NCBI GenBank assembly: GCA_041645165.1
Contig: JBAZQN010000001.1
Span: 53,971 to 117,970 of the forward strand
From: Patescibacteria group bacterium
GTDB taxonomy: Bacteria > Patescibacteriota > Patescibacteriia > 2-02-FULL-49-11
Direction of reading: 5' to 3'
Length of the DNA: 64,000 nucleotides
Part shown: positions 25,818 to 64,000 of the stretch, piece by piece
Layout of the letters: each line of letters opens with the position of its first letter
Numbering within the stretch: position 1 is the first letter of the stretch
Program-made: the position numbers and the translations under genes
The notes under the pieces: generated by a model
The model's database searches: none
What the model saw: the letters and a program-made list of their open reading frames with translations, nothing else
What the model was told of the DNA's origin: nothing

Positions 25818-27152
25818 CTAAGAGGGGGAACTGAGTATTTGATAGTATAGTGTAATATAATTATTAACCATTTGATCGAGAGAGAACTTTTCTACTGCAC
25901 GCTTGCGGCAGGCGGCGGCAATGGCAGCGTATTGGTCGCGTGGAAGATTGATGAGCCATTCAAAGCCATTGGTTAAATCCGAAAGGTCCTTATAAGCCGC
26001 GATGTAGCCATGTTCTTTATGCACGACGAGTTCGGGGATTCCTCCGGTATGGAACGCAAGCGCTGGCAGGCCCGAAGATAACGCTTCAAGCACCGTAAGA
26101 GGGCAATTGTCAGCAAGTGAAGGATAAAGGAGCAAGTCACTTAATGCATAATAATCGGCGATCGTGTGCGAATCAGATGAAAAGGGGACATAGGTTATAT
26201 TTAAATTCTGGGGCACCGTTCGATCGTACCCTCCCATGCAGACGAAAAGTATGTCATTCCTTTGGGCATACGCGTGAATAAGCTGCTCTGCATACTCCCA
26301 TCCTTTCCATACGTTTTTAGCGCCCCCCTTGCTTGAGAAAAGGATAATCTTTTTGTCTTGCGGAAGGTTGTATTTTTTTCTAAGTTCGCCCTTATTCCCC
26401 GGTTTATACAGGCGAGTGTCAACGCCGTTATAAATGACATGGAGCGGTTTATCTTTTAACATGCTTTTTTCTACTTGTGATTTTAACCATAGAGAAGGTA
26501 CGACCACATTGAAGTGCGCGTGGTCGTAGATTTGTTTTTTGAGCTTCCACAAATGCCGGCTGTTGTTACGTCGAAGAGGGGGCAGAGAATCGGAATGGGC
26601 GCAATCGCACCCCCCAGAGATCCAATGTGTGCATTCAAATGCATGCGCTCCTTGGCCTAAAATGGGCCACATATCGTGGAGGGTCCAGACCAATGGTTTG
26701 TTTGAACGGCTACATTGTTGAATGGCTACACTGTTAGGTTGATTGTATGGTGCAATGAGGGGAAGAGTTTTTAAATTAAACCAGAGAGAATGTAGGTTGT
26801 GTGCGTGGACAATGTCTGCGTGCGTATATTCTGGATACGTGAGGATGCGTTTCCCGGGAAGAAAAGCGATGTCGTTGGAGAGCCAAAAGCTAAGATGGTG
26901 ATGGAAGCGGGCTCGGAAATTGCGTTTGATAATTTTTGAAATACGATTATTGAAGGGCGTATCCCAAATTTCACGCACCGAGGGGGCGTGCGAGCGCTTG
27001 TATCCCACGATCATGTTGACCGCGTGCCCTCGGGCTTCCAAGCTTTGTTTTAATTCCCAAGAAACAGCAGCGGCACCGCCTTTCGTGTCGGTAGTGCCGA
27101 GCTCGAGGATGCGCAGTTTTTTTTCGTTAAAATTCGATGTCATCGAAATCAA
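25818..27152 (-). CDS. glycosyltransferase family 4 (GT-B, group 1)
   Basis: C-terminal EX7E-type region LEALSSGLPALAFHTGGIPELVVHKEHGYIA. Confidence 0.8.
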   Translation of the reverse strand: MISMTSNFNEKKLRILELGTTDTKGGAAAVSWELKQSLEARGHAVNMIVGYKRSHAPSVREIWDTPFNNRISKIIKRNFRARFHHHLSFWLSNDIAFLPGKRILTYPEYTHADIVHAHNLHSLWFNLKTLPLIAPYNQPNSVAIQQCSRSNKPLVWTLHDMWPILGQGAHAFECTHWISGGCDCAHSDSLPPLRRNNSRHLWKLKKQIYDHAHFNVVVPSLWLKSQVEKSMLKDKPLHVIYNGVDTRLYKPGNKGELRKKYNLPQDKKIILFSSKGGAKNVWKGWEYAEQLIHAYAQRNDILFVCMGGYDRTVPQNLNITYVPFSSDSHTIADYYALSDLLLYPSLADNCPLTVLEALSSGLPALAFHTGGIPELVVHKEHGYIAAYKDLSDLTNGFEWLINLPRDQYAAIAAACRKRAVEKFSLDQMVNNYITLYYQILSSPS

Positions 27153-28020
27153 TGCACGGAAATATGTCTAGAAACGTATTTGGCGTGGTATTATAAATTT
27201 TTACGCGCGGATGAGTCTGTTCCACTTTTGTAGAAAAGTGGCGGTAATTCTTAAAAAGTTGAAGTACGCTCACCATATATTTTTCATACGACATCTCGAC
27301 ATCGCGTTGCAGCCCCCGTTCTTGGATCGTTTTTATGTCTTTCGTGGGATCTATCTTCTTTTCGTCTTCGGTAGAATAGAAATGCGAGACTGTCTTGATT
27401 TTTCCTAATCCAGTGGGATTGGAGAGATAACTATGCTCGCACCCCAAGAGGTAAAGCTCCTCGAATCCCATATAGACAGCAGCGATCATGCAGGCGAGCA
27501 CCACATTTTTTGGATAGGGTACGGTTTTATCGAGACCAATATTGAAGGGAATTTTATCGCTAAAAATGCCATGATAGGAGATATATGTGATAGGATGATG
27601 GGAGAAAATATTTTTTTGTTCGATGAGAGGTCTTGCCTTTATGTTCAGCAGTAATCGGGTTGAGGGGCTGATGTTTTCTGTTTTATGCTTGAGATTTAAG
27701 CCCCAAAAGTCATCGTCTGATTTAGAAATGAAGTAAGTTGTGTCAGCAATGGCGTAAAATTTCGCATTAAGGTCACGGTAGCGCGGATGCTTGTCCATGT
27801 CGTTGACGGCAAAAGTATATTCGTCCTTGAGTTCTACAAGATCAAAATCTTTGATGGATGGGCCGGTGCCGAGGATAAAACAGCGTTTCCCTTTATGCGT
27901 ATCCCGCAGCGCTCTATTCTTGCGTATAATTCCGCGATAACGATAGTTGAGCGCATGCGGGTAGAGCACGTTTGTATATGCGTAGTGGAAAGGATATTTG
28001 AGTGCGTGAATGATATGCAT
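27127..28020 (-). CDS. DUF115/Maf-like (MptE-like fold) protein, putative nonulosonic-acid transferase
   Basis: CFILGTGPSIKDF (the GxGPS motif) plus AVYMGFEELYLLGCEH, typical of motility-accessory-factor/DUF115 proteins. The assignment is from memory of the family. Confidence 0.45.
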   Translation of the reverse strand: MHIIHALKYPFHYAYTNVLYPHALNYRYRGIIRKNRALRDTHKGKRCFILGTGPSIKDFDLVELKDEYTFAVNDMDKHPRYRDLNAKFYAIADTTYFISKSDDDFWGLNLKHKTENISPSTRLLLNIKARPLIEQKNIFSHHPITYISYHGIFSDKIPFNIGLDKTVPYPKNVVLACMIAAVYMGFEELYLLGCEHSYLSNPTGLGKIKTVSHFYSTEDEKKIDPTKDIKTIQERGLQRDVEMSYEKYMVSVLQLFKNYRHFSTKVEQTHPRVKIYNTTPNTFLDIFPCIDFDDIEF

Positions 28021-28029
28021 AAAGGATGA

Positions 28030-28989
28030 TTAGAGCGGATGTCCGCCGTTTATTTTTTCGTAGACGCTAAGAGCTTCGACTTGGTCATGGACAGTAGGGA
28101 GATCATACTGGTCATTGAGGAACGATTCCACCTGCCGGTAAATGCCTGGTTTGAAACGAGTGTCATAATCGTCGTCAAGCGGCACTTCCTCCTCTATCAC
28201 CGTTCCTTTCATTTGCGTTTTAAGGGTTTCTAAGGGACGGAGAACTATTTTTCGTTTGGTAGTTAGCGCTTCTACCCACCAGCGTCCGGCAGAATCCCAT
28301 GTGGCGTGATAAGAAAAGAGCGCTCCTTGTTCGCTTATGCCAGCGCCGGTGAAGCGCGCAGGACCATCGAGCCAGTCAAATCCTCCCGCGACAAAACTTT
28401 CCATTGTGTGCGGATGTCCGCAGAGAAAAAAGGCAAGGTCAATAAGGTGCGTGGAATTGGCGAGAAACCAGTGGTGGCCGGTGGGGGATAATTTCAATTG
28501 ATCCGAGATTTTATGCACCCATTCGGTGAATTCAAAATGGAACGCGGTTATACCGCCATCTTCTTTAATAAGTTCGCGCGCTTTGCGCGTTGACGCATAG
28601 AAGCGGCGATTGTAGGCGATATAGGTTTTTGATCCTGTTGCCTTTGTTTTCTCTGCGACTGCTTCAATGTCGCTGCGGATAAGCCCACCTGGTTTTTCAA
28701 TGAGCAGAGAACGTGTTCCATAATCCATAAGCGCAATCGCAGAGGGTGAGAGCTGATCTTCGTTTGTGCATATAATAGCTGTTTTAGGGGCGTTTTGATT
28801 GGTTTTAAGCCAAGTTTCCAATCCTCCGCTTACTGTGGGGACCTGGTGCATTGTTTCAAATTCTTTAGCGTGCTGCTCTCCGCGGCCCACGGCGATAAAA
28901 GGCAGGTGCATAGCCTGAAGCACTTTTGCGTACTCATTTCCCATATAACCAGTACCGACGAGGAGGATAGGATCTTGCATAAGGCGCAT
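28030..28989 (-). CDS. Gfo/Idh/MocA-family NAD(P)-dependent oxidoreductase
   Basis: N-terminal Rossmann segment ILLVGTGYMGNEYAKVL...IEKP. Confidence 0.6.
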   Translation of the reverse strand: MRLMQDPILLVGTGYMGNEYAKVLQAMHLPFIAVGRGEQHAKEFETMHQVPTVSGGLETWLKTNQNAPKTAIICTNEDQLSPSAIALMDYGTRSLLIEKPGGLIRSDIEAVAEKTKATGSKTYIAYNRRFYASTRKARELIKEDGGITAFHFEFTEWVHKISDQLKLSPTGHHWFLANSTHLIDLAFFLCGHPHTMESFVAGGFDWLDGPARFTGAGISEQGALFSYHATWDSAGRWWVEALTTKRKIVLRPLETLKTQMKGTVIEEEVPLDDDYDTRFKPGIYRQVESFLNDQYDLPTVHDQVEALSVYEKINGGHPL

Positions 28990-29942
28990 TAGGTAAAAGG
29001 ATAATGATCCAGATTTAATAATTTTCGGATCGGTTCATAGAGTTGGAGATGGAGACGCATGGACTCGGCGTACGGCGTGAGCTGACAATCGCCGTTATGC
29101 AAAATATCTTCAATGACCGGTGCGGTAAGCTGGCTTTGGTAGGGAATGACTGCTTCGTGTTCTATCCATTTCCAGTCTTGTTGAGGCGTTGCCATCCACA
29201 TTTTTCGCTCATTTTCGCGTATAATAACGCGCGCCTGTGGATTGCTTATCGTAATCATAATCGGCGCGCTGTCCTCTAAGAAATGAGAGAATACGCCTAG
29301 ACTGCCATCTTGAAATGTTACCGTCAGCGTTCCATTGAGCTCGAAAAACCCCAGACGTTTACTGGGGATGAGCTTATTGTCCAGCAGATCGGTAGAAACG
29401 GTAAATTCGCGGCAGTCATTGAGATATGACAAATGATCGACGAAATGAATGGCGTTGCACGCGAGGCCCCAGTTTGCCCCGCTTACATGATAATAGAGCC
29501 TGTCGCCTCGTAGTAATTTTTTACAATCGCGATACGCGGGCATGACGCGCATGGGGCAGTTTACCCACGCTTTGATATTGAGCGCATTTAATTTTTTTTG
29601 CGCCGCGTCGTAATCGTCCGGCCGATTAAAGAGGATTTTCTCGAGAAGCAAATAACGCACATGGGCGCGGGCAAGCAGCTCTTCAAGCGCCTGTTTTCTC
29701 ACCGCGGAGGATGTGGCAATGATCGCGACGTCAATATCGGGAAGAGATGCCGGCAGCGTGTTCACGAAATTTATTTCATGCGGTGCGGCGCCATCCACGC
29801 TGTCACATCGTTCTTTCGCCGTTTTTAACGATTCGGAGGACGGATCAACCACAATGATCTGCAGCGGCAGCGATACCGTTTTAAGGGATTGAAGATGCCG
29901 GCTGCCTATATTCCCGGCACCAATAAGTATAATATTTTTCAT
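28989..29942 (-). CDS. Gfo/Idh/MocA-family NAD(P)-dependent oxidoreductase
   Basis: MKNIILIGAGNIGSRHLQSL...LLEKI. ORF-track start at 30017; ATG 29942 gives a 4-nt overlap with the upstream gene, suggesting coupling. Confidence 0.6.
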   Translation of the reverse strand: MKNIILIGAGNIGSRHLQSLKTVSLPLQIIVVDPSSESLKTAKERCDSVDGAAPHEINFVNTLPASLPDIDVAIIATSSAVRKQALEELLARAHVRYLLLEKILFNRPDDYDAAQKKLNALNIKAWVNCPMRVMPAYRDCKKLLRGDRLYYHVSGANWGLACNAIHFVDHLSYLNDCREFTVSTDLLDNKLIPSKRLGFFELNGTLTVTFQDGSLGVFSHFLEDSAPIMITISNPQARVIIRENERKMWMATPQQDWKWIEHEAVIPYQSQLTAPVIEDILHNGDCQLTPYAESMRLHLQLYEPIRKLLNLDHYPFT

Positions 29943-31861
29943 AGGGCATTGGCATTGACAGCCTTTTTGTTTTGCTCCGCCAGGATTTGCAGAAACGAAT
30001 GTTCCGCTTTTTCCCAATCTTCCGGCGTGTCAATGTCGAGAGAGTATTTTCCATCCATCACGTATGCCCGCACCTGTTTGCCGTAGAGTGAGGGTTCAGA
30101 ATTAAGCAAGAGCTCGGTCTTTAAGGCATAGATCGCCCCGTTGCGATAATATGTTTTTGGCAATTCCTGGCGTCGTGGCACAATGCCAGATACCGGCTGG
30201 TCCGTATAAAGTTTAAGCATATTCGTGTCCTGCATGACAAACTGCCAATGGGGGTTAAAATGTCCCGGCACTTCGGTGACGCTCACCACTGAGTCGGCCC
30301 CGGATGTGAGCAAGAGTTCTATTGCTTCGCGGATATGATAATGCATCCTGCCGGGTGAAGTTGGTTCCAGCAGGACGACATAGGCAGGCAAATAGCCCTG
30401 ATTTTCTTTTAGCCACTGAATTGCGTGTTGGAGCACGGCAAGGGACGGGGTATGATCTTGTGCCAGCGCAGTTGGGCGCAGGAAGGGCACGTCCGCGCCC
30501 GCGTGCCGGCCAATATCGGCAATTTCCGCGTCATCGGTGGAGAGGATTAGACGGTCGAGTTTCCCCGATCGCACGCAGGCGTCGATTGTCCAGGCAAGGA
30601 GCGGTTTGTCGCAGAATAGTTTGATATTTTTTCGGGGGATTGATTTAGATCCGCCGCGCGCCGGCACGATTCCTAAAATTTCCGATTTTGGCTGGGAATG
30701 CGTCGAGATATTAAAATCTCTGAATTGTTTTTGGATCCCTGTTTGCCAGATGCGATCCGAGCGCAATTCGGTCAAAAATCGTTCCGTACTTTTGCCGTCA
30801 CCGAAATGGTTATTAGGCGGGAATCTGGTGAGCTGGGAAAATTTCCGAATATGATCAAGAATCGTTTCATGGTGGTAATCGCAATGGAATATACTCGCGT
30901 GCGTGTCAGGAGGGATTCGGTTTGCCTGGCGTGAACCTATGTTGATAGTAGGTACGCCGAAAAACGGAGCCTCCCGTATGCCAGCGCTGGAATTGCCAAT
31001 TATAAAAAGCGCGTTTTGCAGAAACGTAAGGTAATGCTCAAACCGCATGGAAGGGAAGATGCGGAAGCGGGGATGGGCCATGATTTTTTCCCGATAGACG
31101 CTTAAGATCAGATCATTTCCGTGATCATTATTAGGATAGATTACAATGTAATGCAAGCCAGAAGCGATGAGAGCATCAACCAGTTTTTCTGTTTGCTCAG
31201 GAATGCGATGGAGTTCAGTGGTAACGGGATGATGCCCCAGAATGGCATATTCGGAAAAAGGTATTTCGTATCGCTGTTTCGCCTCTGTGAGCGTAGGGAG
31301 ATCGGGCGAGCTCATGATGTCAAGATCAGGAGAACCAATGATGTAAATATGGCGTTCGTCTTCGCCTAGCTGTTGCAAGCGGCGTTTTGCTTCGGTATTG
31401 GAGACAAAATGGATATGGGCGAGTTTACTTATGGCATGGCGGATAATTTCATCCACTGTGCCGGAAATCTCGCCGCCTTCGATGTGGGCGACGAGGATAT
31501 TATTGAGCGCGCCGACAATCGCGCCGGCAAGCGCTTCCACGCGATCGCCGTGGATGACGATCATGTCCGGCTTGAAAAGCTTCACGTAGTTACCAATTCC
31601 TTCAATAGTATGCGCGAGAATCGTGTCCATGGTGCCATGTTCGGCATCGTTAATGTATTGATAGACATGCGGAAAGCCGAGTTTCAAGATTTCTTCGCCG
31701 GTGTATCCGTATTTTTCGCTCATGTGCATTCCCGTGACAAAGACGGATACGTCGAATAAATCCAGTTTGATAATTTCCTGAATCAGCGGCTTGATTTTTC
31801 CGAATTCTGCTCGCGTGCCGGTGAGATAGACGATTTTACGTTTCATACAAAATACTCCCAC
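29939..31861 (-). CDS. neuCA: bifunctional UDP-N-acetylglucosamine 2-epimerase (hydrolysing, NeuC/LegG-like) / CMP-nonulosonate cytidylyltransferase (NeuA-like) fusion
   Basis: N-terminus KIVYLTGTRAEFGKIKPL...VTGMHMS (NeuC). C-terminus ILGIVPARGGSKSIPRKNIKLFCDKPLL (NeuA/CMP-KDO-synthetase-like). Confidence 0.8.
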   Translation of the reverse strand: MGVFCMKRKIVYLTGTRAEFGKIKPLIQEIIKLDLFDVSVFVTGMHMSEKYGYTGEEILKLGFPHVYQYINDAEHGTMDTILAHTIEGIGNYVKLFKPDMIVIHGDRVEALAGAIVGALNNILVAHIEGGEISGTVDEIIRHAISKLAHIHFVSNTEAKRRLQQLGEDERHIYIIGSPDLDIMSSPDLPTLTEAKQRYEIPFSEYAILGHHPVTTELHRIPEQTEKLVDALIASGLHYIVIYPNNDHGNDLILSVYREKIMAHPRFRIFPSMRFEHYLTFLQNALFIIGNSSAGIREAPFFGVPTINIGSRQANRIPPDTHASIFHCDYHHETILDHIRKFSQLTRFPPNNHFGDGKSTERFLTELRSDRIWQTGIQKQFRDFNISTHSQPKSEILGIVPARGGSKSIPRKNIKLFCDKPLLAWTIDACVRSGKLDRLILSTDDAEIADIGRHAGADVPFLRPTALAQDHTPSLAVLQHAIQWLKENQGYLPAYVVLLEPTSPGRMHYHIREAIELLLTSGADSVVSVTEVPGHFNPHWQFVMQDTNMLKLYTDQPVSGIVPRRQELPKTYYRNGAIYALKTELLLNSEPSLYGKQVRAYVMDGKYSLDIDTPEDWEKAEHSFLQILAEQNKKAVNANAL

Positions 31862-55486: not shown

Positions 55487-58400
55487 ATGTCGAATTTTAT
55501 CAAAAAAAGTTTTACATGGGGAGTTGTGGGCGCCACTATCGTATGGTCGCTCGGAATATTTGTTCTCCCCGTTCAAGTGAAGGGCGCGCAGGACGGCGAT
55601 CTTATCAAGATGCCGGGTAATCCTGCGGTATACCTTCTCAAGGGCGGCAAGAGATTTGTATTCCCGAACGACAAGGCATACTTTACGTGGTACAGCGACT
55701 TCTCTGGAGTGGTAACGGTATCGCAATCCGAGCTCCAATCGTATCCCATCGGCGGCAACGTGACTTACAAACCAGGTACCAGGTTAATAAAGATCACGAC
55801 CGATCCGAAGGTATATGCGGTTGAGCCAAACGGAACTCTCCGATGGGTAACATCGGAAGCGATCGCCGTTTCCCTCTACGGATCAAACTGGAACAAGAGA
55901 ATTGATGACGTTCCAGATCCGTTCTTCGTGAACTACACCACCGGCGCAGATGTCACGACTGCAACATACCCGGTTGGCTCTATAGTGAAAGAAGAGAGCT
56001 CCGCCACGGTCTATTACATTGCCGAGAGCAATACCAAGCGGCCATTCGCCACTGATGCGGCGCTCACCGCGAACATGATGAAGACCGGCAATGTGCTCAC
56101 CGCGACCAGTCTCGCCAGCTACACTTCAGGCACCTCTGTCACAGGCAAAGAGGACACGCTTGCAGTATTTGGCGGCACCACGAGCACCGGCCCCGCGGCA
56201 GGCGGCACGCTTTCATTGGCGCTCTCTGCTGACACGCCCGCGTCTGGCGTCTTCGTGAAAAGCGCTGCGCGCGTTCCGTTTACCTATATCAATGCGACCG
56301 CAACCGGCGGCGAAGCAGTGATTGACTCGATGGTAATCCAAAGAGGCGGCATTGCGCAGGACTCGATATTTTCAGATATCACCATTCTTGTGGATGGGAC
56401 GCAGGTGGGATTAAACAAATCCTTTAACTCCGTGCACCAAGCCACATTGTATGATGACATCACCATCCCAAGCGGCACTACCAAGAAGATCATGCTGACC
56501 GGTAATACGTCAGCGATGGCCTCAAACTCTGGTGAAATGCCGATCCTTGGTTTGGCTGCAGTTACCCTCAAGAGCGGCACCTTGTCAGCATCGCTGCCAA
56601 TCTATGGCAACCCGATGACTGCCAATAACACTATCAGTATCGCTGCCGTAACCGTCGCGCGCGGTCCGCTTGACCCCGGCGCCACTTCTACCCAGAAGAT
56701 CGGCACCAAACAATATGCCTTCACCTCGGTGAAACTTAGCAATGATTCAGTAGAAAAAGTGCAGGTGGAAGAGCTTATCTGGGATCAGGCAGGTTCAGCT
56801 GACGATTCAGACATTTCAAATGTCAATCTTTTGGTTGACGGCGTTGTGATTGCGTCCCTGTCCAATCCAGTGGACAAGAAAGCGCACTTCAAGCTTGCAA
56901 CCCCATATTTGATTGATAAGGGGAAGAACAAAGAGTTTACCATCAAGGCGGATATTGATTCTGGATCAAACCGCACGGTGGACTTTGACATCGAAAAGAA
57001 TACCGATGTCGTGGTAAAGGGATTAACCTATGGCTATTATGTCCTGGCAACAGGATGGCCATCAGCGACTGATCCTCGATTGAGCGGTTATGCCGTGACC
57101 ATTGATACTGGCTCGCTAAAGATTGAGCCTGTCGCCACCGCGTCCAACAAGATAACGGACGGCTCCACAGGCCAGATCTTGGGCATGTTTAATTTTGAGG
57201 CAAAGGGTGAAGATGTTTCCATCACTTCTCTCGGCATCAAGGTTACCGTTTCAAGCTCCGCGGCAAACGTATCTGACGTGACCAATATCACGCTCTATGA
57301 CGAGGCAGGCCTTGCGGTAGCCGGTCCGGTAGACCCTACAGGAACTACCGCAGATATTACCGCAACTTCCACTGATACCATTACGGTGCCCGTCGGCATT
57401 CATAAATACACCGTTAAGGGTGATTTGAGCACTGATTTTGTGTCTGCGGATACGGTGTTAGTGAAAATTAAGCCTTCAGACATCACTTCAAAGGGCGTCA
57501 CGACAGGCAAGACGGTCACCCCGACGCCCGCGACATACCAAACCTCTACCACACAAACGGTGCAGGCAGGATCTCTTGTGGCGAACATTTCCACGACTCC
57601 TGTGGCACAGACCGTGGTCGCAGGCACCAATGGGCATACCTTTACGAACTATGTGCTTGACGCGCAAGGTTCTGGCGAAGATATCCGTGTCACGCAGATA
57701 AAGGCTGCCATGCATACCACGGGGTCTTCCTACCCTGCGTTGATTTCAGGATTGAAGCTTTATGACGGCTCCCTCGAGCTCGTCACGTCAAATGATCCTG
57801 ATCCGACGAACACCACTGCAGCCGCATCGGCTACTTCAACCTTCACCTTTGTGAATGCGCTTGTAGTGCCGAAGGGAACCTCCAAGACTTTGTCGCTCAA
57901 GGGGAATATCTCCAAGAGCGTCACGTCTGGCACAGTGAAACTCGGGCTTCAGAATGATGCGACGAATGCTATCGCGGCGACAGGCAAGGATACCGGCGCG
58001 ACCATTACTCCTACCTACAGCTATTCTGACGGCCAAGCGATGACACTCACTGATGCTGGCACACTCACGCTCTCGGCAGACGCGTCTACGCCAATCGCAG
58101 GGCATGTTCCCGGTTCATCCACCGGACTCCCTGTGGGCGTATTCTCCATGCAATCGAGGCATGAGGATATCAATGTAGAAAAGATTTGGTTCAGGCTCTC
58201 AGCGGTGAACAGCGGCGGTCCAGATCAAGTTGACAAGATTTGGCTCACTGACGGCACGAAGACTGTAGGGGTTACTCCAACCTCTTCAGATTCTTCCGCT
58301 CCGGTTCAGGTGCTCTTCGATGTGTCACTTGATCCATTCGTGGTTGCCGCAAACACTACCAAGCTCTATACCCTCAAGGTTGATACGGCGCAAGTTGACA

Positions 58401-59176
58401 CGCCATCAGGATCCAAGGGCGCCATGGGCGAGGGCTTCCAGTTCTCGATTAACGCAACCGGTGATATTACCGCAAAAGGTGCGTCATCTGGCAATAGCGT
58501 AAGCACGATTACTGGCACGCCCACGTTCAATGCCTTTACCCTGTATAAGACTGTGCCAACAGTTGACGTATCGAGCGGAGTGACGAATAAGCTTACTTCA
58601 AACGGCACCTATGAACTCTACAAGTTCACCATTGCCGCGGATCCGAAGGGCGAAGTAGCTCTCTATAAGCTTACGTTCGGCATTTCAACGACCACGGTCA
58701 CCGCATCCAGCTTCGAGCTACGCGACAGCGGGTATACCCAGGGCGCAGTAGGCACCCTCTCCGTAGCGTCGCAGAACCTCGCTGTTCCGGCGTCAGGATA
58801 TCTCGAGTTCCTGTTTGACACGGATTCAAGCGGTATAGGCCAAGGCGGTGAGTATCGATCGATTCCTGCAGGCAGCTCGCGAACCTTTACTTTGAAGGCC
58901 AGCGTAAGCGGCTACAGCTCAAGCGTCTCCAATGGCGTGAACGTTGCGCTCGCAGGCGATGCAACCTTCCCATCAACCGTGGTTGAGTGCGCAGGCACTA
59001 CCGGAGCAAGCGATAATGCGTGCACCGGTGTAGATTCCGACGATCAGGACGACTTCATCTGGTCTGACCTTAACTATGGTAACAACTCCACGACTGCCAC
59101 TAATACGGCACAATGGACCAACGGTTACCGCGTGAAAGGCCTTGATTCAACCTCGTCAACTGCGCAATCAATCTAA
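55487..59176 (+). CDS. large Thr/Ser/Gly-rich secreted surface protein (S-layer/adhesin-like), N-terminal ~55-aa modules shared with ORF 1306-2934
   Basis: Signal peptide/TM FTWGVVGATIVWSLGIFVLPVQVKGA. Modules GDLIKMPGNPAVYLL... and GTRLIKITTDPKVYAVEPNGTLRWV... Over 1000 aa of low-complexity T/S/G/A/V beta-rich sequence. RBS aaggaag before ATG 55487; the ORF-track start at 55469 is GTG. Confidence 0.7.
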   Translation: MSNFIKKSFTWGVVGATIVWSLGIFVLPVQVKGAQDGDLIKMPGNPAVYLLKGGKRFVFPNDKAYFTWYSDFSGVVTVSQSELQSYPIGGNVTYKPGTRLIKITTDPKVYAVEPNGTLRWVTSEAIAVSLYGSNWNKRIDDVPDPFFVNYTTGADVTTATYPVGSIVKEESSATVYYIAESNTKRPFATDAALTANMMKTGNVLTATSLASYTSGTSVTGKEDTLAVFGGTTSTGPAAGGTLSLALSADTPASGVFVKSAARVPFTYINATATGGEAVIDSMVIQRGGIAQDSIFSDITILVDGTQVGLNKSFNSVHQATLYDDITIPSGTTKKIMLTGNTSAMASNSGEMPILGLAAVTLKSGTLSASLPIYGNPMTANNTISIAAVTVARGPLDPGATSTQKIGTKQYAFTSVKLSNDSVEKVQVEELIWDQAGSADDSDISNVNLLVDGVVIASLSNPVDKKAHFKLATPYLIDKGKNKEFTIKADIDSGSNRTVDFDIEKNTDVVVKGLTYGYYVLATGWPSATDPRLSGYAVTIDTGSLKIEPVATASNKITDGSTGQILGMFNFEAKGEDVSITSLGIKVTVSSSAANVSDVTNITLYDEAGLAVAGPVDPTGTTADITATSTDTITVPVGIHKYTVKGDLSTDFVSADTVLVKIKPSDITSKGVTTGKTVTPTPATYQTSTTQTVQAGSLVANISTTPVAQTVVAGTNGHTFTNYVLDAQGSGEDIRVTQIKAAMHTTGSSYPALISGLKLYDGSLELVTSNDPDPTNTTAAASATSTFTFVNALVVPKGTSKTLSLKGNISKSVTSGTVKLGLQNDATNAIAATGKDTGATITPTYSYSDGQAMTLTDAGTLTLSADASTPIAGHVPGSSTGLPVGVFSMQSRHEDINVEKIWFRLSAVNSGGPDQVDKIWLTDGTKTVGVTPTSSDSSAPVQVLFDVSLDPFVVAANTTKLYTLKVDTAQVDTPSGSKGAMGEGFQFSINATGDITAKGASSGNSVSTITGTPTFNAFTLYKTVPTVDVSSGVTNKLTSNGTYELYKFTIAADPKGEVALYKLTFGISTTTVTASSFELRDSGYTQGAVGTLSVASQNLAVPASGYLEFLFDTDSSGIGQGGEYRSIPAGSSRTFTLKASVSGYSSSVSNGVNVALAGDATFPSTVVECAGTTGASDNACTGVDSDDQDDFIWSDLNYGNNSTTATNTAQWTNGYRVKGLDSTSSTAQSI

Positions 59177-59237
59177 ACTGATCATTTAGATGAGATTAAG
59201 ATGCATTGACAGCGATTGAATCGCCAGAGTGGCATTC

Positions 59238-59276
59238 CGCCCCCCGCAATTGCGGGGGGCGGATGCTTGTTTCTGG
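59238..59276 (+). terminator. Rho-independent terminator
   Basis: A 12-bp GC stem ccgccccccgca/tgcggggggcgg followed by cttgttt. Confidence 0.6.
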
Positions 59277-59324: not shown

Positions 59325-60056
59325 ATGATATACCAATTAAAACAGAACAGAATTTTACTTCTGTTAGCGGCAATAATAATCGTAATCGGCGGAGGAATAT
59401 ATTACCAACAATATCGTCAACGACCGCCAGTTTATTCCGGCAACGGATTACCGGCGGAACTTCAGCCCTATGCTCATTTATTCGAGTTTGAGAATCTTGA
59501 CCCCAATCTTCCGGATTCGGCGCGTGAGAAATTTTTTAAGCGTTTCACCAATGATACCAATGCGCTTCGCGCAAACCCCGACAATTTTAATGCATGGCTG
59601 GATATTGGGCTCGTGCATAAGAATTTAAACGCGTTTGAGAAAGCGCGCGATGCGTGGGAGCATCTGGGCGAGATCCGTCCCCTTAACTCCATCTCATTTT
59701 CAAATATTGGGGATCTCTATGCGTGGTTTCTCCATGAACCAGCCAAGGGCGAAGCGGCATACCTGCAGGCTCTAAAAAATGAGCCGACCGATATAAATTT
59801 CTACAGAAATCTTGCCGAGATATACGATAAGCTCATGCCCGAAAGGAAAGGCCAAATTGACCCGCTTCTGGAAGAGGGGATAAAGGCAGCAAGAACAAAT
59901 ACGGAGAAAGCAGAGCTCACCGCGCTTATGGCAAGTTACGAACGTGATCGTGGAGAAAAGGATGAAGCGCTAAAACATTATCGCGAGGTACTCGCGCTCG
60001 ATCCAAAGTATCCTAAAAAAGAGTTGATTCAGGCAGAGATAGATAAATTATACTAA
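59325..60056 (+). CDS. membrane-anchored tetratricopeptide-repeat protein
   Basis: N-terminal TM (ILLLLAAIIIVIGGGIYY) then TPR-like helices (AWLDIGLVHKNLNAFEKARDAWE...). Confidence 0.6.
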   Translation: MIYQLKQNRILLLLAAIIIVIGGGIYYQQYRQRPPVYSGNGLPAELQPYAHLFEFENLDPNLPDSAREKFFKRFTNDTNALRANPDNFNAWLDIGLVHKNLNAFEKARDAWEHLGEIRPLNSISFSNIGDLYAWFLHEPAKGEAAYLQALKNEPTDINFYRNLAEIYDKLMPERKGQIDPLLEEGIKAARTNTEKAELTALMASYERDRGEKDEALKHYREVLALDPKYPKKELIQAEIDKLY

Positions 60057-60296: not shown

Positions 60297-61433
60297 TCAA
60301 TTGAGATACACGCGTTCGGTCGCCGCGATCATCGTTTGAAGTGTGGGGATCGGCTTGGGTGGTGATTCTCGAACAGTGGAAGTTGCGGAGAGCACCGAGA
60401 GAATCACTTCGGTAAGCGCAAAGGAGTCCTTCGGATCAATGAGGCGATACATAGCATTTTCCTCCATAACTTCAGGAATTCCTCCCACGCGTGTTGCGAC
60501 GATAGGAATGTGCGCGGCAAGCGCTTCGAGGATGGTATAGGGAAGGCCTTCTTTGAGCGAGGGAAGTGCGAAACAATCAAACGCTTTTAGGTACACGGCA
60601 GCATCAGGAATATGCCCCAGCAGGTGGCAATTTTTTTGTAAATGATTTGCGGCAATAAATTGCTCAAGTTTATTTCTTTCCGGTCCTTCGCCAATGATGA
60701 GGAAATGGAATTCTGGATTTTTTTGGATAATAGTTTTTGCCGACTCAAGCAGCGTATCCAATCCCTTGGTCGCATATAATCCTGCAATGGTGCCGATCCA
60801 TGTTGCAGCAGCATTGAGGGGAGGAAATTTTTTAGAAAGATGCAATCGTGCCTCGTCGCGTGTAAGAAATGAAATTTCCTTAATCCCTATGGGTATGGTC
60901 ACTATATTTTGCGGCTTGGCAATATGTGCGCGGATTGCCGCACGGTGATCGTCTTCTGAAACGCAAATCGTGACATCGCGCAGTTTTCCCGCAAACCACT
61001 CCGCTAGCCAGTAGATAAGCTTAATGATAGGCGCGAGAGGCTCTTTGAGCACCAAGCCATGCACAGTATAGATTATCTTCGGCACGCGAGCGAAGCGCGC
61101 GGCTAATGCGCCTAGAAATCCTGACTTCGATGAATTGAGATGGACAATTTGCGGCCGGATACTGCGGCAAAGTTGATAGATTTCTGCGATAGCGGCGACG
61201 TCATTCAGCGGCGAGAGGGGACGTTTTAGTCTTGAGAGATACACTGCGTGCACGCCGGTATCTTGTAAACGGGCAAAAAGCTCTCCCTCTGGGTCTTCTC
61301 CTGCCGCGACCGTGACATCCCATCCGCGGGATGCGAAATGCGATGCCAAGTCGAAGACATACCTCTGCGCCCCTCCCCATACCGACTGGGTGACGAGGAA
61401 GAGAATTTTTTTCATGCGGGCTGGTATTTCCAT
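60297..61433 (-). CDS. glycosyltransferase family 4
   Basis: SLKEGLPYTILEALAAHIPIVATRVGGIPEVMEE. Confidence 0.8.
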   Translation of the reverse strand: MEIPARMKKILFLVTQSVWGGAQRYVFDLASHFASRGWDVTVAAGEDPEGELFARLQDTGVHAVYLSRLKRPLSPLNDVAAIAEIYQLCRSIRPQIVHLNSSKSGFLGALAARFARVPKIIYTVHGLVLKEPLAPIIKLIYWLAEWFAGKLRDVTICVSEDDHRAAIRAHIAKPQNIVTIPIGIKEISFLTRDEARLHLSKKFPPLNAAATWIGTIAGLYATKGLDTLLESAKTIIQKNPEFHFLIIGEGPERNKLEQFIAANHLQKNCHLLGHIPDAAVYLKAFDCFALPSLKEGLPYTILEALAAHIPIVATRVGGIPEVMEENAMYRLIDPKDSFALTEVILSVLSATSTVRESPPKPIPTLQTMIAATERVYLN

Positions 61434-61489: not shown

Positions 61490-62452
61490 ATGAATATACT
61501 TATAACCGGTGGCGCTGGTTTTATCGGTGCATGGTTGGCAAAAGCATTACACGAACGAGGAGATGTAGTTACGGTGATTGATGATTTTTCTTCAATTAAC
61601 TATCGTGCTCAAATTAAGGAGGCACGTGTTGAAGCCCTCCTTAGCGGCGTTAACGTTGTACGTGGCAGTATTCTTGATGTTTCTTTGATGGTCAGGTTGC
61701 TTAAAGATAAACCGTATGATTGCATCGTACATTTCGCAGCAGCACCCGGCGTGCGCTATTCAAGTAGAGAGCCATTAACTTACGCGCGGGTAAATGTTGA
61801 AGGAACTACTGCAGTATTTGAGTCAGCGAAACAAGCAGGAGTGAATTGGGTAGTGTATGCGTCTTCTTCTTCAGTGTATAGCATGGTTCAGGACATTCCG
61901 TTCAATGAGAATCATTCAATAGAAAAAGTTACATCGATTTATGCTGCAACCAAGCGTGCAACGGAATTGATTGCAGGGACCTATTGGCTTACTGCGAGAA
62001 TTAAATCTACCGGAGTACGTTTTTTTAATGTGTACGGCCCATGGGGACGTCCGGATACCCTTCCTTATATTGTTTCTAATGCTATTTTTAATCACGCTCC
62101 TATTGAACTGAAATGGGAAGGTAATATCGCGCGTGACTTTACATCGGTGCACGATATTGTTCGCGGAGTCATTTCAGTGATTGGTCATCCCGAAGCAGAG
62201 TGTGAACTTGTCAATTTTGGTAACTCTCATCCAATCCTTCTCAAGGAGCTGGTTAGTAGGCTTGAAGCAATCATCGGTATTGATGCAATTGTTAAGAGCG
62301 AACATGCGATTCCACGAGAGGATCCCATCAATACTTATGCCGATATTAAACTTGCAAAACTAAAGTATGGATGGGAGCCATGTGTCTCATTGGATGAAGG
62401 GTTAAAAGAATTGGCGGAATGGCATAAAAAATATTACAGAGCTGATTATTAA
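61490..62452 (+). CDS. NAD-dependent epimerase/dehydratase (UDP-sugar 4-epimerase-like)
   Basis: ILITGGAGFIGAWL, SSSSVYS and YAATKRATE (the YxxxK motif). Confidence 0.75.
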   Translation: MNILITGGAGFIGAWLAKALHERGDVVTVIDDFSSINYRAQIKEARVEALLSGVNVVRGSILDVSLMVRLLKDKPYDCIVHFAAAPGVRYSSREPLTYARVNVEGTTAVFESAKQAGVNWVVYASSSSVYSMVQDIPFNENHSIEKVTSIYAATKRATELIAGTYWLTARIKSTGVRFFNVYGPWGRPDTLPYIVSNAIFNHAPIELKWEGNIARDFTSVHDIVRGVISVIGHPEAECELVNFGNSHPILLKELVSRLEAIIGIDAIVKSEHAIPREDPINTYADIKLAKLKYGWEPCVSLDEGLKELAEWHKKYYRADY

Positions 62453-62466: not shown

Positions 62467-63264
62467 ATGAAATTTAAGTTAGGCATTATAGGAGTCGGAA
62501 TGGTCGGCGGCGCGGTGTACGCGTACTATCCCGATGCTATTCCTTACAGCCCGCGGAAATATCCGCAGAATAAGGAAAAAATTAATGATGCAGATATCGT
62601 ATTCGTGTGCGTTCCCACGCCATTTATGAAAGATGGCGTAGGGTTTGATCTGTCTTATGTGCATGACGCAATTTCACTATTGAAGGAAGGGAAGACAGTG
62701 GTCATAAAATCAACCGTCATCCCGGGCACTACGGATGCCTTGCAGGCGCAATATCCCCAGCATAAATTCCTTTTCAATCCTGAATTCCTGCGCGAGGCAT
62801 CAGCTAATGAGGATTTCAAAAATCCGGACAGGCAGATTATCGGCACTACTGCGCAGAGTGAAGCCGCAGCCCGTGAATTAATGGGAATCCTCCCTCCCGC
62901 GTCGTTTAGCAAAATTGTTCCGGCAAAAGAGGCAGAGATGGTGAAATATTTCGGGAATACCTTCTTAGCTACGCGCGTTATCTTCGCAAACCAGATGTTT
63001 GACTTGTGTAAAAAGCTTGGAATCGATTATGAATTAGTGAAAGAAGCGGCATCAGCCGATCCCCGGATCGGGCCTTCTCATTTTAATATAGATCAGGATG
63101 GCTATCGCGGGTATGGCAAAAAATGCCTGCCCAAAGACACACGCGCGCTCCTGCAGCTCGCTGTACAGACGGGGGTGAATTTGGAACTATTAAAGACGCT
63201 TGAGGAGATTAACCACGAGCTCACCGGCGGCGTGGACAAAGAAGCAGACCCTTACGGTTTGTGA
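62467..63264 (+). CDS. ugd: UDP-glucose/GDP-mannose dehydrogenase family protein, unusually short (265 aa)
   Basis: N-terminal Rossmann LGIIGVGMVGGAV, FVCVPTP, NPEFLREASA, and the catalytic Cys context GYGKKCLPKD. It ends about 130 aa short of typical family members. Confidence 0.55.
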   Translation: MKFKLGIIGVGMVGGAVYAYYPDAIPYSPRKYPQNKEKINDADIVFVCVPTPFMKDGVGFDLSYVHDAISLLKEGKTVVIKSTVIPGTTDALQAQYPQHKFLFNPEFLREASANEDFKNPDRQIIGTTAQSEAAARELMGILPPASFSKIVPAKEAEMVKYFGNTFLATRVIFANQMFDLCKKLGIDYELVKEAASADPRIGPSHFNIDQDGYRGYGKKCLPKDTRALLQLAVQTGVNLELLKTLEEINHELTGGVDKEADPYGL

Positions 63265-63269
63265 GAATC

Positions 63270-63400
63270 ACAAACCGTAAATCCAAATTTCAAAGTTCAA
63301 ATGTCAAATGAACGACCAATGCCAAAATTCCAATATTTCAATGTTTGGAATTTAGAATTTGAGATTTTATTAGAAATTTGAAATTGGGGCTTTAGATTTA
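63270..63400. repeat. family C AT-rich palindromic repeat (copy 5)
   Basis: aaatccaaatttcaaagttcaaatgtcaaatg...caatgtttggaatttagaatttgagatttt...gaaatttgaaattgg. Confidence 0.55.
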
Positions 63401-63408
63401 TTAAAATT

Positions 63409-64000
63409 ATGCGTATTCTTGTTACAGGCGGTGCCGGTTTTATCGGCGCTCATCTCTGCAAAGATCTACTTACAAAAGGTCACGAAGTTGTGTGTCTTGA
63501 TAATTTTGTGACCGGAAAAAAAGAGAATCTTGGGGATCTTCTGAAGCAGAACAATTTTTCTCTCATTATACATGATGTATGCGAACCCTTGCCTCCTGTA
63601 CTTGGTAAAGTAGATCTTGTGTACCATCTCGCGGCCATTGCCTCTCCGTGGAAATACCTTGAACAGAAATTATTTACTTTGAAAACAAATATTTGGGGCA
63701 CTTATCATGCGCTTGAGTATTGCCGCGCGAACGGAAGCGCTCTTATTTTTTCTTCCACCTCGGAAGTCTACGGCGATCCTGAAGAGCATCCTCAAAAAGA
63801 GGAATATTGGGGACACGTGAATCCCATTGGCCCGCGCGCCTGTTACGACGAAGGAAAGCGCGCGGCTGAATCGATGATTACTAATTACCAGGAAACGTAT
63901 GGAATGCAGTGCGCGATAGCCCGGATATTCAACACCTTCGGACCCCAGATGGCGCTTGATGACGGCAGGCCGGTCATTAATTTTATCTCAAAAGCATTGA
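63409..64000 (+). CDS. uxs: UDP-glucuronate decarboxylase (UDP-xylose synthase), 5'-partial, runs off window
   Basis: ATG 63409 then MRILVTGGAGFIGAHLC...VNPIGPRACYDEGKRAAE, the classic UXS signature. No stop before position 64000. Confidence 0.8.
   Translation, partial: MRILVTGGAGFIGAHLCKDLLTKGHEVVCLDNFVTGKKENLGDLLKQNNFSLIIHDVCEPLPPVLGKVDLVYHLAAIASPWKYLEQKLFTLKTNIWGTYHALEYCRANGSALIFSSTSEVYGDPEEHPQKEEYWGHVNPIGPRACYDEGKRAAESMITNYQETYGMQCAIARIFNTFGPQMALDDGRPVINFISKAL

Follow-up and report, generated by a model that had tools for sequence, protein, structure and literature searches.

The 64,000-nucleotide stretch of contig JBAZQN010000001.1 analysed here (referred to throughout as the window) holds a multi-pathway surface-glycan locus that encloses the gene for a large secreted protein rich in Ser and Thr, a layout which a first-pass annotation of the DNA had proposed and which our analysis bears out. 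The protein, of 1235 residues and encoded on the plus strand at 55469-59176, is here named BIG. Comparison with related genomes inverts the earlier picture of how the parts belong together: since the operon is widespread and the island restricted, it is the genes for a sigma factor of the extracytoplasmic function (ECF) type, an anti-sigma-like protein, BIG and a TPR protein that form the old core. As judged from gene order and homology, these genes and a divergent HTH_17 gene are an ancient, phylum-wide operon, beside which a 27-kb island (25818-52745, genes mainly on the minus strand) is a lineage-specific, fast-diverging insert. We regard the whole as an envelope operon next to a strain-variable glycan factory, the latter comprising the island plus the GT4 glycosyltransferase, short-chain dehydrogenase/reductase (SDR), Ugd and UXS genes downstream of BIG, with the Ser and Thr residues of BIG as the most likely acceptor; to this reading we give a little less than an even chance. 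The narrower claim, that a surface glycoconjugate is made by way of an ATP-binding cassette (ABC) exporter and a GT-C glycosyltransferase, is held with good confidence.

Genes were called from a listing of open reading frames (ORFs) together with hidden Markov model (HMM) scans against Pfam and NCBIfam and structure and PDB searches, which recovered nearly every gene that the first-pass annotation had named. The source organism is best placed as a Patescibacterium near Candidatus Uhrbacteria, the nearest genome being that of Candidatus Uhrbacteria RIFCSPLOWO2_02_FULL_49_11, with 91% identity in BIG. Proteins 100% identical to the 658-residue and 297-residue proteins of the island are encoded in an NCBI 'Patescibacteria group bacterium' MAG, on a contig of 182,672 bp. 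For the comparison, 79 genome loci were fetched with a 12-sequence BIG alignment and annotated by phmmer with the proteins of the window and of the loci. A full-length BIG is present in 50 loci; 45 have enough upstream sequence and 36 extend at least 6 kb downstream. Counts of downstream and DUF5667 genes are lower bounds, since they come from single-sequence queries.

An ECF sigma gene lies directly upstream of BIG in all 45 loci and a divergent HTH_17 gene stands upstream in 37 of them; a DUF5667-type protein was detectable in at least 20 of the 50 loci with full-length BIG and a TPR protein downstream of BIG in at least 16 of the 36. The nonulosonate, heptose and fucose island is confined to the window and its closest relative, the metagenome-assembled genome (MAG) MAG041, in which it occupies the same place, split over two contigs. 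Island and BIG are thus not conserved together as the unit first described. A Gmd gene alone stands upstream of the operon in an Uhrbacteria locus (L009), and a Gmd/SDR-family gene in L004; in most other lineages HtrA or an unrelated gene lies upstream of HTH_17. Between the window and MAG041, identities are 90% for BIG, 77% for HtrA, 74% for the sigma factor and 60% for the anti-sigma-like protein, and range from 39 to 81% within the island (39% for an IMPase-like phosphatase, 45% for a DUF115 protein, 60% for the GT-C protein and 81% for Gmd). Variable surface-glycan loci typically show this combination of a slowly changing surface protein and fast-changing sugar genes. BIG is also the most conserved protein of the region against MAG041 (loci L001 and L088), which is unusual for an exposed surface protein. 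Many loci with a typical BIG operon are titled 'uncultured Gammaproteobacteria bacterium' (L011, L013, L016 and others), one is titled Acutalibacteraceae and one Methylomirabilis; these titles probably mark mislabelled or contaminated bins.

Downstream of BIG, at least 29 of the 36 loci carry one or more glycan genes within 10 kb, and at least 15 carry genes for Wzy_C-TPR proteins, PMT/PMT_2 proteins or both within that distance, Wzy_C-TPR being found in 11 of the 36. The co-occurrence of glycosylation machinery with the surface protein, to which the first-pass annotation had pointed, is thus recovered at the generic level only, in the form of Wzy_C-TPR, PMT/PMT_2, GT4, SDR and Ugd genes recurring after BIG. 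The recurrent Wzy_C-TPR and PMT genes link BIG to extracytoplasmic glycosylation in general. Three loci (L027, L037 and L069) have three or four tandem Wzy_C-TPR paralogues of about 720-780 residues right after BIG-like genes, a striking 'O-antigen ligase-like' expansion in a phylum reported to be without lipopolysaccharide (LPS).

BIG has a signal peptide, is acidic, contains two Cys residues and is 24.1% Ser+Thr, against some 10-11% in neighbouring proteins of the window, so that its earlier description as a secreted, Thr/Ser-rich protein stands. Scans of BIG against Pfam and NCBIfam returned nothing, even at E<=10. Its AlphaFold model (pLDDT 84, from a 37-sequence alignment) begins with an alpha/beta region of about 200 residues (approximately 40-240) containing three repeats (xVYxIxxxGxxRxI...), which is followed by some eight beta-sandwich domains; Foldseek matched the model only to generic immunoglobulin-like and macroglobulin-like arrays (mastigoneme, PrgB, alpha-2-macroglobulin and integrin legs). 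An exhaustive HMMER search collected a family of 1,796 clusters at 50% identity (E<=1e-30), mostly of 1,150-1,300 residues. Hundreds of full-length homologues exist, and all the named ones are from Patescibacteria (Kuenen-, Buchanan-, Komeili- and Parcubacteria). BIG is, on these homologue counts, one of the major conserved large proteins in this part of the phylum. A hairpin resembling an intrinsic terminator (59236-59263, plus strand; 12 bp, of which 11 are G-C) lies 60 nt past the end of the gene. Taken together, the acidity, the two Cys residues, the 24% Ser+Thr, the beta-sandwich array, the wall anchor described below and the strong terminator are compatible with a surface layer (S-layer) protein; BIG would fit an abundant structural surface protein and is, from its modelled architecture, a candidate S-layer or envelope protein.

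No C-terminal anchor was found in BIG. Its N-terminal module carries the invariant motifs YP[IL]GGNVTY and DVPDPFF. Two homologues, P0112 and P0114, align to BIG only from residue 244, a PG_binding_1 domain replacing the N-terminal module, and in related MAGs several proteins per genome carry the module. Because of this domain swap and of the reuse of the module on other proteins, the three-repeat module probably serves to anchor proteins to the cell wall. The window itself encodes a second secreted protein with the three-repeat module (545 residues; 1297-2934, plus strand), the C-terminal domain of which contains an HExxH motif (HELLH) and has no Pfam match. Another protein, L4_519, was considered as a membrane transferase and rejected, being a paralogue of BIG's N-terminal module.

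The ECF sigma factor (53391-53963, plus strand) has Sigma70_r2 and Sigma70_r4_2 domains and scores 76.5 bits with TIGR02937 (cutoff 42.9). The next gene (53950-55149, plus strand) overlaps it by 14 nt and encodes a putative anti-sigma factor with a DUF5667 domain (PF18915, 27.0 bits, equal to the cutoff). Hydropathy indicates a single transmembrane segment (approximately 69-101) in this protein, with the DUF5667 domain and a coiled region predicted to be extracytoplasmic. Pfam gave no zf-HC2 or RskA match in it, and the literature search on DUF5667 found nothing relevant; the gene overlap and the invariant position favour an anti-sigma role. Divergent from these genes is that for the small DNA-binding protein HTH_17 (52920-53186, minus strand; PF12728, 1.9e-10).

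An ECF-type promoter, TGTAAC-N16-CGTC (53358-53383, plus strand), is the sole match to this pattern in the window, and because it ends only 8 nt ahead of the sigma start codon we take the sigma gene to be autoregulated and its mRNA to be probably leaderless. Of 48 related loci, 24-27 have the same element, in the form TGTAAC-N16-CGTC(T), equally far from the sigma start. The strict pattern occurs upstream of BIG in none of the 48, and a scan of the window found no ECF promoter before the island operons. The 45 of 45 partnership with BIG and the presence of the ECF promoter only before the sigma gene argue that the sigma factor belongs to BIG and not to the island. The earlier view of a sigma/anti-sigma pair inside the island and dedicated to it was accordingly rejected, there being no ECF promoter ahead of any island operon and BIG being the invariant partner. 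A sigma-70 scan revealed no clear promoter of BIG's own; a TTGACA-N17-TCTAAT sequence just past the anti-sigma stop codon is visible by eye and fails the rule of that scan.

The leader of BIG contains a further conserved element (55318-55365, plus strand), in which AAAGGTCGGC is followed by a long hairpin; the leader contains the AAAGGUCG element. Of 48 loci, 44 have the sequence AGGTCG, mostly as AAAGGTCGR, at 30-340 nt before BIG, with a hairpin of unrelated sequence behind it. An outer helix often encloses both motif and hairpin, leaving (A)AAAGGUCGR as a conserved 5' internal loop. With the motif held single-stranded, the two-helix fold was obtained in 21 of the 44 loci, as compared to 1.4±1.2 in shuffled sequences. 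MAFFT alignments proved unusable for structure, and a covariance model was built in two rounds. It yields 23 matches in 1.5 Mb, and for 19 of them a BIG-like ORF follows 49-272 nt downstream; examples are L002 9832-9869, L047 9865-9902, L036 9917-9954 and L015 9850-9888, with about 15 more loci. When 16 of the matches are aligned, pairing holds in 93% of cells, a share that drops to 62% after shuffling and to 28-46% when the partners are slid; compensatory changes are present in 12 of 12 pairs, with a covariation score of 0.76 against 0.24 in shuffles. Rfam contains no matching family. The covariance model fails to recognise the copy in the window (6.8 bits), which keeps the loop and the long hairpin; on these retained features it is a diverged copy of the covarying RNA motif of other lineages. 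As to function we can only guess at a processing or stabilising element, or at an attenuator set between the sigma genes and BIG.

On the island side, export and transfer of the glycan would fall to two adjacent minus-strand genes. The first (46940-48916) encodes a 658-residue protein with about 13 transmembrane helices and a C-terminal soluble domain of approximately 150 residues, the polytopic N-terminal part of which has the GT-C fold, so that its earlier naming as a GT-C-like polytopic protein is upheld. The second (48932-50725) encodes a half-transporter of the MsbA/HepA/PglK kind, in which a six-helix transmembrane domain is fused to a nucleotide-binding domain (Pfam ABC_membrane and ABC_tran); this is the architecture expected of the MsbA/PglK-like exporter first proposed, at scores short of the equivalog cutoffs (HepA, 323 bits of the 725 needed; MsbA, 314 of 602; PglK, 231 of 1000). 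The ABC exporter gene lies immediately beside the GT-C gene in the window and in all three related contexts read, and a GHMP kinase is likewise present in all three; two of these contexts also have genes for the alpha and beta subunits of an E1-type enzyme, with B12-radical-SAM enzymes as frequent companions, and in one, an Elusimicrobia MAG (L008), NeuB and NeuC accompany the cassette. We conclude that the 658-residue protein represents a new GT-C family, the ABC exporter being its fixed partner. It is a candidate extracytoplasmic glycan transferase, and the half-transporter a candidate lipid-linked glycan flippase.

Structural comparison of the 658-residue protein gave values of 23.8 for Pmt4, 22.5 for ALG12, 20.5 for AglB, 19.9 for ArnT and 18.2 for STT3B, the best match thus being to protein O-mannosyltransferases. 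Among the 12 homologues found, Asp39 is invariant and Asn40 nearly so; these residues form part of the stretch TDDTDNE right after the first transmembrane helix, in a loop that the GT-C fold would place outside the membrane. The protein has no Pfam STT3 match, and because it lacks the WWDxG motif it is not assigned to the STT3 family. Nor did Pfam or NCBIfam yield any other match even at E<=10, PMT (PF02366) and PMT_2 (PF13231) included; PF13231 was detected in one of the 12 homologues. A comparison by hhalign with the PMT/PMT_2 proteins that follow BIG elsewhere was weak (probability 70.7%, E 3.8e-5, 136 columns), an invariant Lys-Tyr pair being aligned. A match of the GT-C profile to cytochrome c-554 in the PDB (E 0.00097) was set aside as spurious.

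From the observed gene identities, the GT-C fold, the ABC/GT-C pairing, the conservation of the operon and the variability of the island we infer a lipid-linked route, an order of steps, a set of sugars and an acceptor, as follows. Soluble enzymes would make a CMP-nonulosonate, a GDP-heptose-like sugar, GDP-fucose and UDP-glucuronic acid (UDP-GlcA)/UDP-xylose. Cytoplasmic GT4, GT-A and DUF115 transferases would build the glycan on the inner side of the membrane, with polyprenyl phosphate as the carrier, the ABC exporter would flip the lipid-linked product, and the GT-C enzyme would move it onto an acceptor outside the membrane. BIG would be secreted by the Sec route and held to the wall by its N-terminal module, and other wall-anchored proteins would perhaps be further acceptors.

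Four points count for BIG as the acceptor: transferase genes lie right after BIG and the TPR gene, BIG is rich in Ser and Thr, the best structural match of the GT-C protein is to O-mannosyltransferases, and bacteria of the candidate phyla radiation (CPR) are reported to be without lipid A and LPS, their envelope being described as unresolved (PMC5220378). Because of this last report, a classical O-antigen pathway ending in the ligase WaaL is unlikely. Pfam and NCBIfam scans of the window ORFs found no Wzy_C, Lpx or Kds genes, and the LPS locus raised in the first-pass annotation as the contrary case finds no WaaL or lipid A-core genes within the window. The same annotation had named, as telling against its proposal, island homologues that lack any large Ser/Thr-rich protein and sit instead with lipid A-core/WaaL genes; the first half of this applies, as homologues of the island core without such a protein do exist.

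Those homologues belong to the evidence that weighs against BIG as the acceptor. The cassette of ABC exporter, GT-C protein, GHMP kinase and E1 alpha/beta occurs with no BIG nearby in L007 and in the Elusimicrobia MAG L008, so it is not dedicated to BIG; one of these two copies adjoins a Wzy_C-TPR gene. GT-C enzymes such as ArnT, Aft and Emb modify lipids or polysaccharides, and the fold therefore gives no acceptor identity. N-X-S/T sequons show no more than a mild enrichment in BIG (19, as compared to 12.9±3.1; mean z of 1.2 among homologues) and the D-S/T-[AILVMT] motif of Bacteroidetes is not enriched in it. Scanning of the window ORFs brought up neither an initiating phosphoglycosyl transferase nor Wzx, Wzy_C or an LCP ligase. 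The label 'GDP-heptose' is itself uncertain, because the relevant scores (below) fall under their cutoffs and because L008 has the GHMP kinase with E1 alpha/beta and without GmhA or GmhB. The downstream module (TuaC-like GT4, Ugd and, in relatives, Wzy_C) resembles a teichuronic-acid-type operon as well. Glycosylation of BIG itself is putative, and that BIG is the main acceptor we consider somewhat less probable than the contrary, if still ahead of any other single acceptor.

The strongest rival is that the island, or at least the GT4/Ugd/UXS module, makes a wall-linked glycopolymer or capsule, such as a secondary cell wall polymer (SCWP) or a teichuronic-acid-like polymer, to which the N-terminal module of BIG binds and on which the GT-C and ABC proteins act. 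We consider this a real possibility, of about a third of the total weight. S-layer genes adjoin SCWP genes in Bacillus and Paenibacillus; here the downstream GT4 matches the TuaC and EpsE models with a Ugd-like gene adjacent, the Wzy_C proteins of relatives could be polymerases, BIG has a dedicated wall-anchor module, the ABC/GT-C cassette occurs without BIG, and a cytoplasmic DUF115 protein and GT4s would suit any lipid-linked pathway. As regards the island at least, one point speaks against this rival: the anchor module is highly conserved whereas the island is variable and absent from most lineages, and one would expect a binding domain so conserved to have a ligand that is conserved too. 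The lack of LCP ligase, Wzx, Wzy and initiating transferase among the window ORFs scanned tells against a polymer too, and in relatives one to four copies of Wzy_C proteins with TPR domains stand right after BIG, which suggests recognition of protein.

A general system of protein O-glycosylation, acting on type IV pilins and wall-anchored proteins (the 545-residue paralogue among them) with BIG as one abundant substrate of many, is unlikely. In its favour, the cassette is mobile and turns up in other settings, BIG's anchor module recurs on several proteins, and L002 has type IV pilus genes ahead of its BIG operon, though this window has none; general O-glycosylation with terminal pseudaminic or legionaminic acid is established in Tannerella forsythia (PMC5420450, PMC6120980). 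Such generality fits poorly with membrane transferases that, in distantly related lineages, recur immediately behind BIG and its TPR partner, and no sequon is recognisable. Least probable is that the adjacency is an accident of a permissive integration site between the HtrA-side genes and the sigma operon, the product (a glycolipid or a released exopolysaccharide, for example) being unrelated to BIG and the wall: the absence of the island from that site in most lineages, the lack of ECF promoters before its operons and its opposite strand would agree, but the island is kept at the same site in two genomes whose island proteins have diverged to 45-80% identity, and the other flank of BIG also consists of glycan genes in most lineages.

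Returning to glycosylation of BIG as the preferred reading, we now describe the enzymes that would supply the sugars, beginning with the nonulosonate block at the left of the island, all on the minus strand. At its outer edge an S-adenosylmethionine (SAM)-dependent methyltransferase (24886-25734; Methyltransf_23, 1.7e-16) is syntenic in the MAG041 locus L088. A second SAM methyltransferase lies at 33012-34001 (Methyltransf_23, 2.9e-25); both of the methyltransferases previously listed therefore exist, the former just before the start then given to the island (25818). A GT4 glycosyltransferase (25818-27152; Glycos_transf_1 and Glyco_transf_4, no NCBIfam equivalog) precedes a 297-residue, single-domain MptE/DUF115-like protein (27127-28020; PF01973, E 1.7e-4). 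The latter scores 21.8 bits, under the Pfam cutoff of 34.6, and PF01973 is present in about 85 of 120 of its listed homologues; its gene stood beside NeuB/NeuC genes in every context read, and it is a candidate CMP-nonulosonate transferase. Its first-pass label, Maf/DUF115-like, holds as regards the homologues, while its own score is below the cutoff and the multi-domain architecture of Maf is lacking. No membrane segments were found in the DUF115 protein, the GT4s or the TIGR04440 enzyme described below, and PDB sequence searches with the DUF115-like and TIGR04440 proteins returned nothing useful.

Two Gfo/Idh/MocA oxidoreductases follow (28030-28989, GFO_IDH_MocA 3.9e-5; 28989-30017, 5.8e-6), and then a hydrolysing 2-epimerase of NeuC type fused to a CMP-nonulosonate synthetase (29939-31861; TIGR03568, CTP_transf_3 5e-21). 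The NeuC part scores 392.5 bits with TIGR03568 (cutoff 235.9), the cytidylyltransferase part 171.6 bits as PseF-like, below the cutoff of 205.7. The two parts form one 640-residue ORF in the window and adjacent genes of 391 and 238 residues in MAG041 (L088 6200-8095); the single ORF is either a genuine fusion or the result of a stop codon lost in assembly. The nonulosonate synthase (31843-32883; Pfam NeuB, 2e-68) is NeuB/LegI-like, with 347 bits for TIGR03569, short of the cutoff of 400, against 207 bits for PseI. The CMP-nonulosonate route was thus correctly recognised, NeuC, NeuB and the cytidylyltransferase being found together by HMM. Because NeuC exceeds its equivalog cutoff and NeuB is nearer to NeuB/LegI than to PseI, the profiles point to a sugar of legionaminic/neuraminic rather than pseudaminic type; we leave the precise nonulosonate unspecified, since the NeuB and PseF cutoffs are not reached (347 of 400 and 172 of 206).

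Next to these are a WbuX N-acetyl-sugar amidotransferase (34119-35423; TIGR03573, 368.5 bits, cutoff 203.2), a HisH-like protein (35342-36013; TIGR01855, 188.8 bits, cutoff 105.4) and a HisF/WbuZ-like protein (35974-36747; TIGR03572, 268 bits, just under the cutoff of 299.7; TIGR00735, 287 bits). The amidotransferase with HisH and HisF paralogues was an element of the first-pass annotation, and TIGR03573 and HisH score above their cutoffs. The three would form an acetamidino group, which the nonulosonate probably carries. In the library searched, no paper was found that links nonulosonic acids, or S-layer glycosylation, with Patescibacteria, and this cluster is seemingly the first to be discussed for the phylum.

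The middle of the island, again on the minus strand, starts with a TIGR04440-type, GT-A-like glycosyltransferase (36751-37806; 161 bits, cutoff 70, with a weak GT2 match at 0.006). There follow a GmhB-like HAD phosphatase (37828-38400; TIGR00213, 131.5 bits, cutoff 149.6, above the HAD-IIIA superfamily cutoff) and a GmhA-like SIS isomerase (38384-38947; TIGR00441, 205.9 bits, cutoff 209.45). Further on lie a DegT/PseC/RfbH-type enzyme dependent on pyridoxal phosphate, an aminotransferase or a 3-dehydrase (44064-45221; Pfam DegT, 1.1e-66; PseC 193 and RfbH 183 bits, both under cutoff), an HddC-like sugar-1-phosphate nucleotidyltransferase (45218-45937; NF049965, 115 bits, cutoff 300) and an HddA-like GHMP sugar kinase (45934-46935; NF049969, 140 bits, cutoff 600). 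For the GDP-heptose route claimed for the island, genes resembling those of the four enzymes are there, and GmhA, GmhB, HddA and HddC all score below their equivalog cutoffs.

Several genes of this part had not been listed in the first-pass annotation: the E1 alpha/beta pair (38993-40997), an SDR (41056-42003), a NUDIX hydrolase and an IMPase-like phosphatase, to which the HTH_17 gene (52920-53186) may be added. The E1 proteins, a beta subunit (38993-40039, minus strand) and an alpha subunit (40041-40997, minus strand), depend on thiamine diphosphate; the pair matches Transket_pyr, Transketolase_C and E1_dh in Pfam and stays under the pyruvate dehydrogenase equivalog cutoffs. The SDR epimerase/dehydratase/reductase (minus strand) matches Pfam Epimerase at 1.6e-32. 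The NUDIX gene (42176-42814; Pfam NUDIX, 1.8e-4) and the gene for the IMPase/HisN/CysQ-like phosphatase (42911-43855; Inositol_P, 1.6e-48) are on the plus strand and break the minus-strand run; IMPase-like genes also lie within the related islands L008 and L088. Elsewhere, too, genes for the GHMP kinase, B12-radical-SAM enzymes, the ABC exporter and the GT-C protein accompany the E1 pair (L007 20171-21923; L008 1546-3677). In the Elusimicrobia MAG L008 it adjoins ATP sulfurylase, APS kinase and a pyruvate-kinase-like gene.

An analogy for the E1 pair is offered by Plm8/Plm9 of paulomycin and AviB1/AviB2 of avilamycin biosynthesis, E1-type pairs by which keto-sugars receive a two-carbon branch derived from pyruvate (PMC4802897). 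Here too the E1 subunits come without E2 or E3, near an SDR and a DegT-type enzyme, in a sugar-modification cluster; the Streptomyces enzymes act on deoxysugars of secondary metabolites, whereas here the role would be in a cell-surface glycan. By this analogy the GDP-heptose-like sugar may gain an amino group from the DegT enzyme and a two-carbon branch from E1 alpha/beta. At the right of the island, both on the minus strand, are a GDP-fucose synthase, Fcl (50726-51715; NF047922, 442 bits, cutoff 500, by far the best model), and a GDP-mannose 4,6-dehydratase, Gmd (51684-52745; TIGR01472, 556 bits, cutoff 415), which confirm the GDP-6-deoxyhexose route as the GDP-fucose pathway.

Downstream of BIG, the conserved partner is a membrane-anchored TPR protein (59325-60056, plus strand) with TPR matches in Pfam and an N-terminal transmembrane segment. 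A GT4 of TuaC/EpsE-like type follows (60297-61433, minus strand; Pfam GT4; NCBIfam stp2 127 and TuaC 89 bits, below their cutoffs), its position being conserved. The next gene (61490-62452, plus strand) encodes an SDR epimerase/dehydratase, with PDB matches to 5u4q (7e-55), 6zl6 (9e-32), MoeE5 (6kv9; 3e-31) and UXS1 (1e-21). The best of these is deposited as a dTDP-glucose 4,6-dehydratase and 6zl6 as 'Epimerase domain-containing protein'; 6zl6 and MoeE5 we take to be UDP-GlcA 4-epimerases. Its identification as UXS was rejected, given the much poorer match to UXS1 than to 5u4q and the presence of the true UXS, a UDP-glucuronate decarboxylase, at 63409-64000 (plus strand, cut by the window end). 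The latter matches human UXS1 at 1.2e-68 with 234 bits, the next family scoring 92 bits, and has the Pfam Epimerase domain. Between the two is a short Ugd-like protein of 265 residues (62467-63264, plus strand) with PF03721 and PF00984 only, which aligns to Ugd in the PDB (5e-32) over residues 37-250 and lacks the C-terminal domain as well as part of the N-terminal one. The short form (261-279 residues, without the C-terminal nucleotide-sugar-binding domain) also occurs at L004 15940-16734 and in L016, L024 and L040, others having 418-422 residues. Hence the UDP-GlcA/UDP-Xyl route of the first-pass annotation has a clear, if truncated, UXS, and a Ugd-like protein that lacks its C-terminal domain; UXS would yield UDP-xylose if UDP-GlcA is available. 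Far from these genes, and unrelated to the finding, are genes of GH1 beta-glucosidase and GH42-like type beside one for a ZnuA-like binding protein (4099-6679), with a tRNA-Pro nearby (8007-8078).

The locus may be compared with several known systems. The slg clusters of Geobacillus stearothermophilus, Paenibacillus alvei and Aneurinibacillus thermoaerophilus employ an ABC-2 Wzm/Wzt exporter, the initiator WsaP and a Wzy_C-type O-oligosaccharyltransferase, WsaB, and it was for the S-layer glycans of A. thermoaerophilus that the GDP-D-glycero-alpha-D-manno-heptose and GDP-6-deoxyhexose routes were first described. Shared with these are a large surface-protein gene beside nucleotide-sugar genes, cytoplasmic glycosyltransferases, ABC-type export and transfer outside the membrane. 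Here, by contrast, an MsbA/PglK-type half-transporter and a GT-C protein are present, the window has neither Wzy_C nor an initiating enzyme, and SLH domains are absent; Wzy_C-TPR does occur in relatives of the locus, and S-layer formation by BIG is only a candidate property. The parallel to S-layer glycosylation that had been drawn therefore extends to the surface protein and sugar routes and stops short of the Wzy_C oligosaccharyltransferase and the initiating enzyme, neither of which was found in the window.

The pgl system of Campylobacter jejuni (PglK and PglB) shares the ABC half-transporter beside a GT-C protein with a C-terminal soluble domain, and GT4 assembly on a lipid carrier; it differs in that here there is no WWDxG motif or Pfam STT3 match, PglK scores 231 of 1000 bits and sequon enrichment is weak. 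With the GT39 enzymes (yeast Pmt1/2/4 and actinobacterial Pmt) and with PMT_2/ArnT-like proteins the 658-residue protein has in common the Asp of the first loop, and hhalign links it to PMT/PMT_2 proteins of Buchananbacteria type. Unlike them, it has no Pfam PMT/PMT_2 match and no MIR domain, and its partners are an ABC exporter and a complex-glycan island in place of a simple polyprenyl-P-mannose synthase. In the tua operon of Bacillus subtilis, which includes the GT4 TuaC, the Ugd TuaD, TuaA and TuaB, the likeness is in the TuaC-like GT4, the TuaD-like Ugd, the Wzy_C-family protein of relatives and further GT4s directly downstream of BIG; scores here are far below the equivalog cutoffs, Wzy_C carries TPR domains and is multiplied, TuaA and TuaB are missing and Ugd is truncated.

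The S-layer glycan of T. forsythia bears terminal pseudaminic or legionaminic acid, fucose and methylation, with a strain-specific nonulosonate module (PMC5420450, PMC6120980). That organism is a Gram-negative Bacteroidete, the sequon of which, D(S/T)(A/I/L/V/M/T), is not enriched in BIG, and it has another set of transferases. A Maf-like identity of its nonulosonate transferases was considered and dropped, the text of the paper giving it no support. Maf (DUF115) flagellin transferases (PMC9298399; bioRxiv 10.1101/2020.06.03.131540) likewise have a DUF115/MptE-like domain encoded inside a nonulosonate cluster. The protein of the window differs in its 297 residues, single domain and sub-cutoff score, and no flagellar genes were seen in the window or the related loci. 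Flagella are not known from CPR bacteria.

Loci of this general kind, in which variable surface-glycan genes adjoin the gene of a surface protein, have been known before. The novelty lies in the details: a GT-C family with a fixed ABC exporter as partner, a sigma/BIG operon found throughout the phylum, a module for anchoring to the wall, a leader RNA and the occurrence of E1 alpha/beta in a surface-glycan island. Since Patescibacteria live attached to other cells, their surface governs host contact, phage adsorption and immune-like recognition, and the locus supplies testable parts for it: a candidate major surface protein, its regulator, a reusable wall-anchor module and candidate decorating enzymes. 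A bolder reading, to which we give distinctly less credence than to BIG as acceptor, would make BIG the main S-layer-type envelope protein of many Patescibacteria, held by an undescribed anchor module, governed by a dedicated ECF circuit and leader RNA, and O-glycosylated outside the membrane, here by the GT-C/ABC pair with a strain-variable glycan of acetamidino-nonulosonate, a branched amino-heptose-like sugar, fucose and xylose or uronic acid, and elsewhere by Wzy_C-TPR or PMT proteins. If true, the surface of CPR cells and its antigenic variation would for the first time be described in molecular terms.

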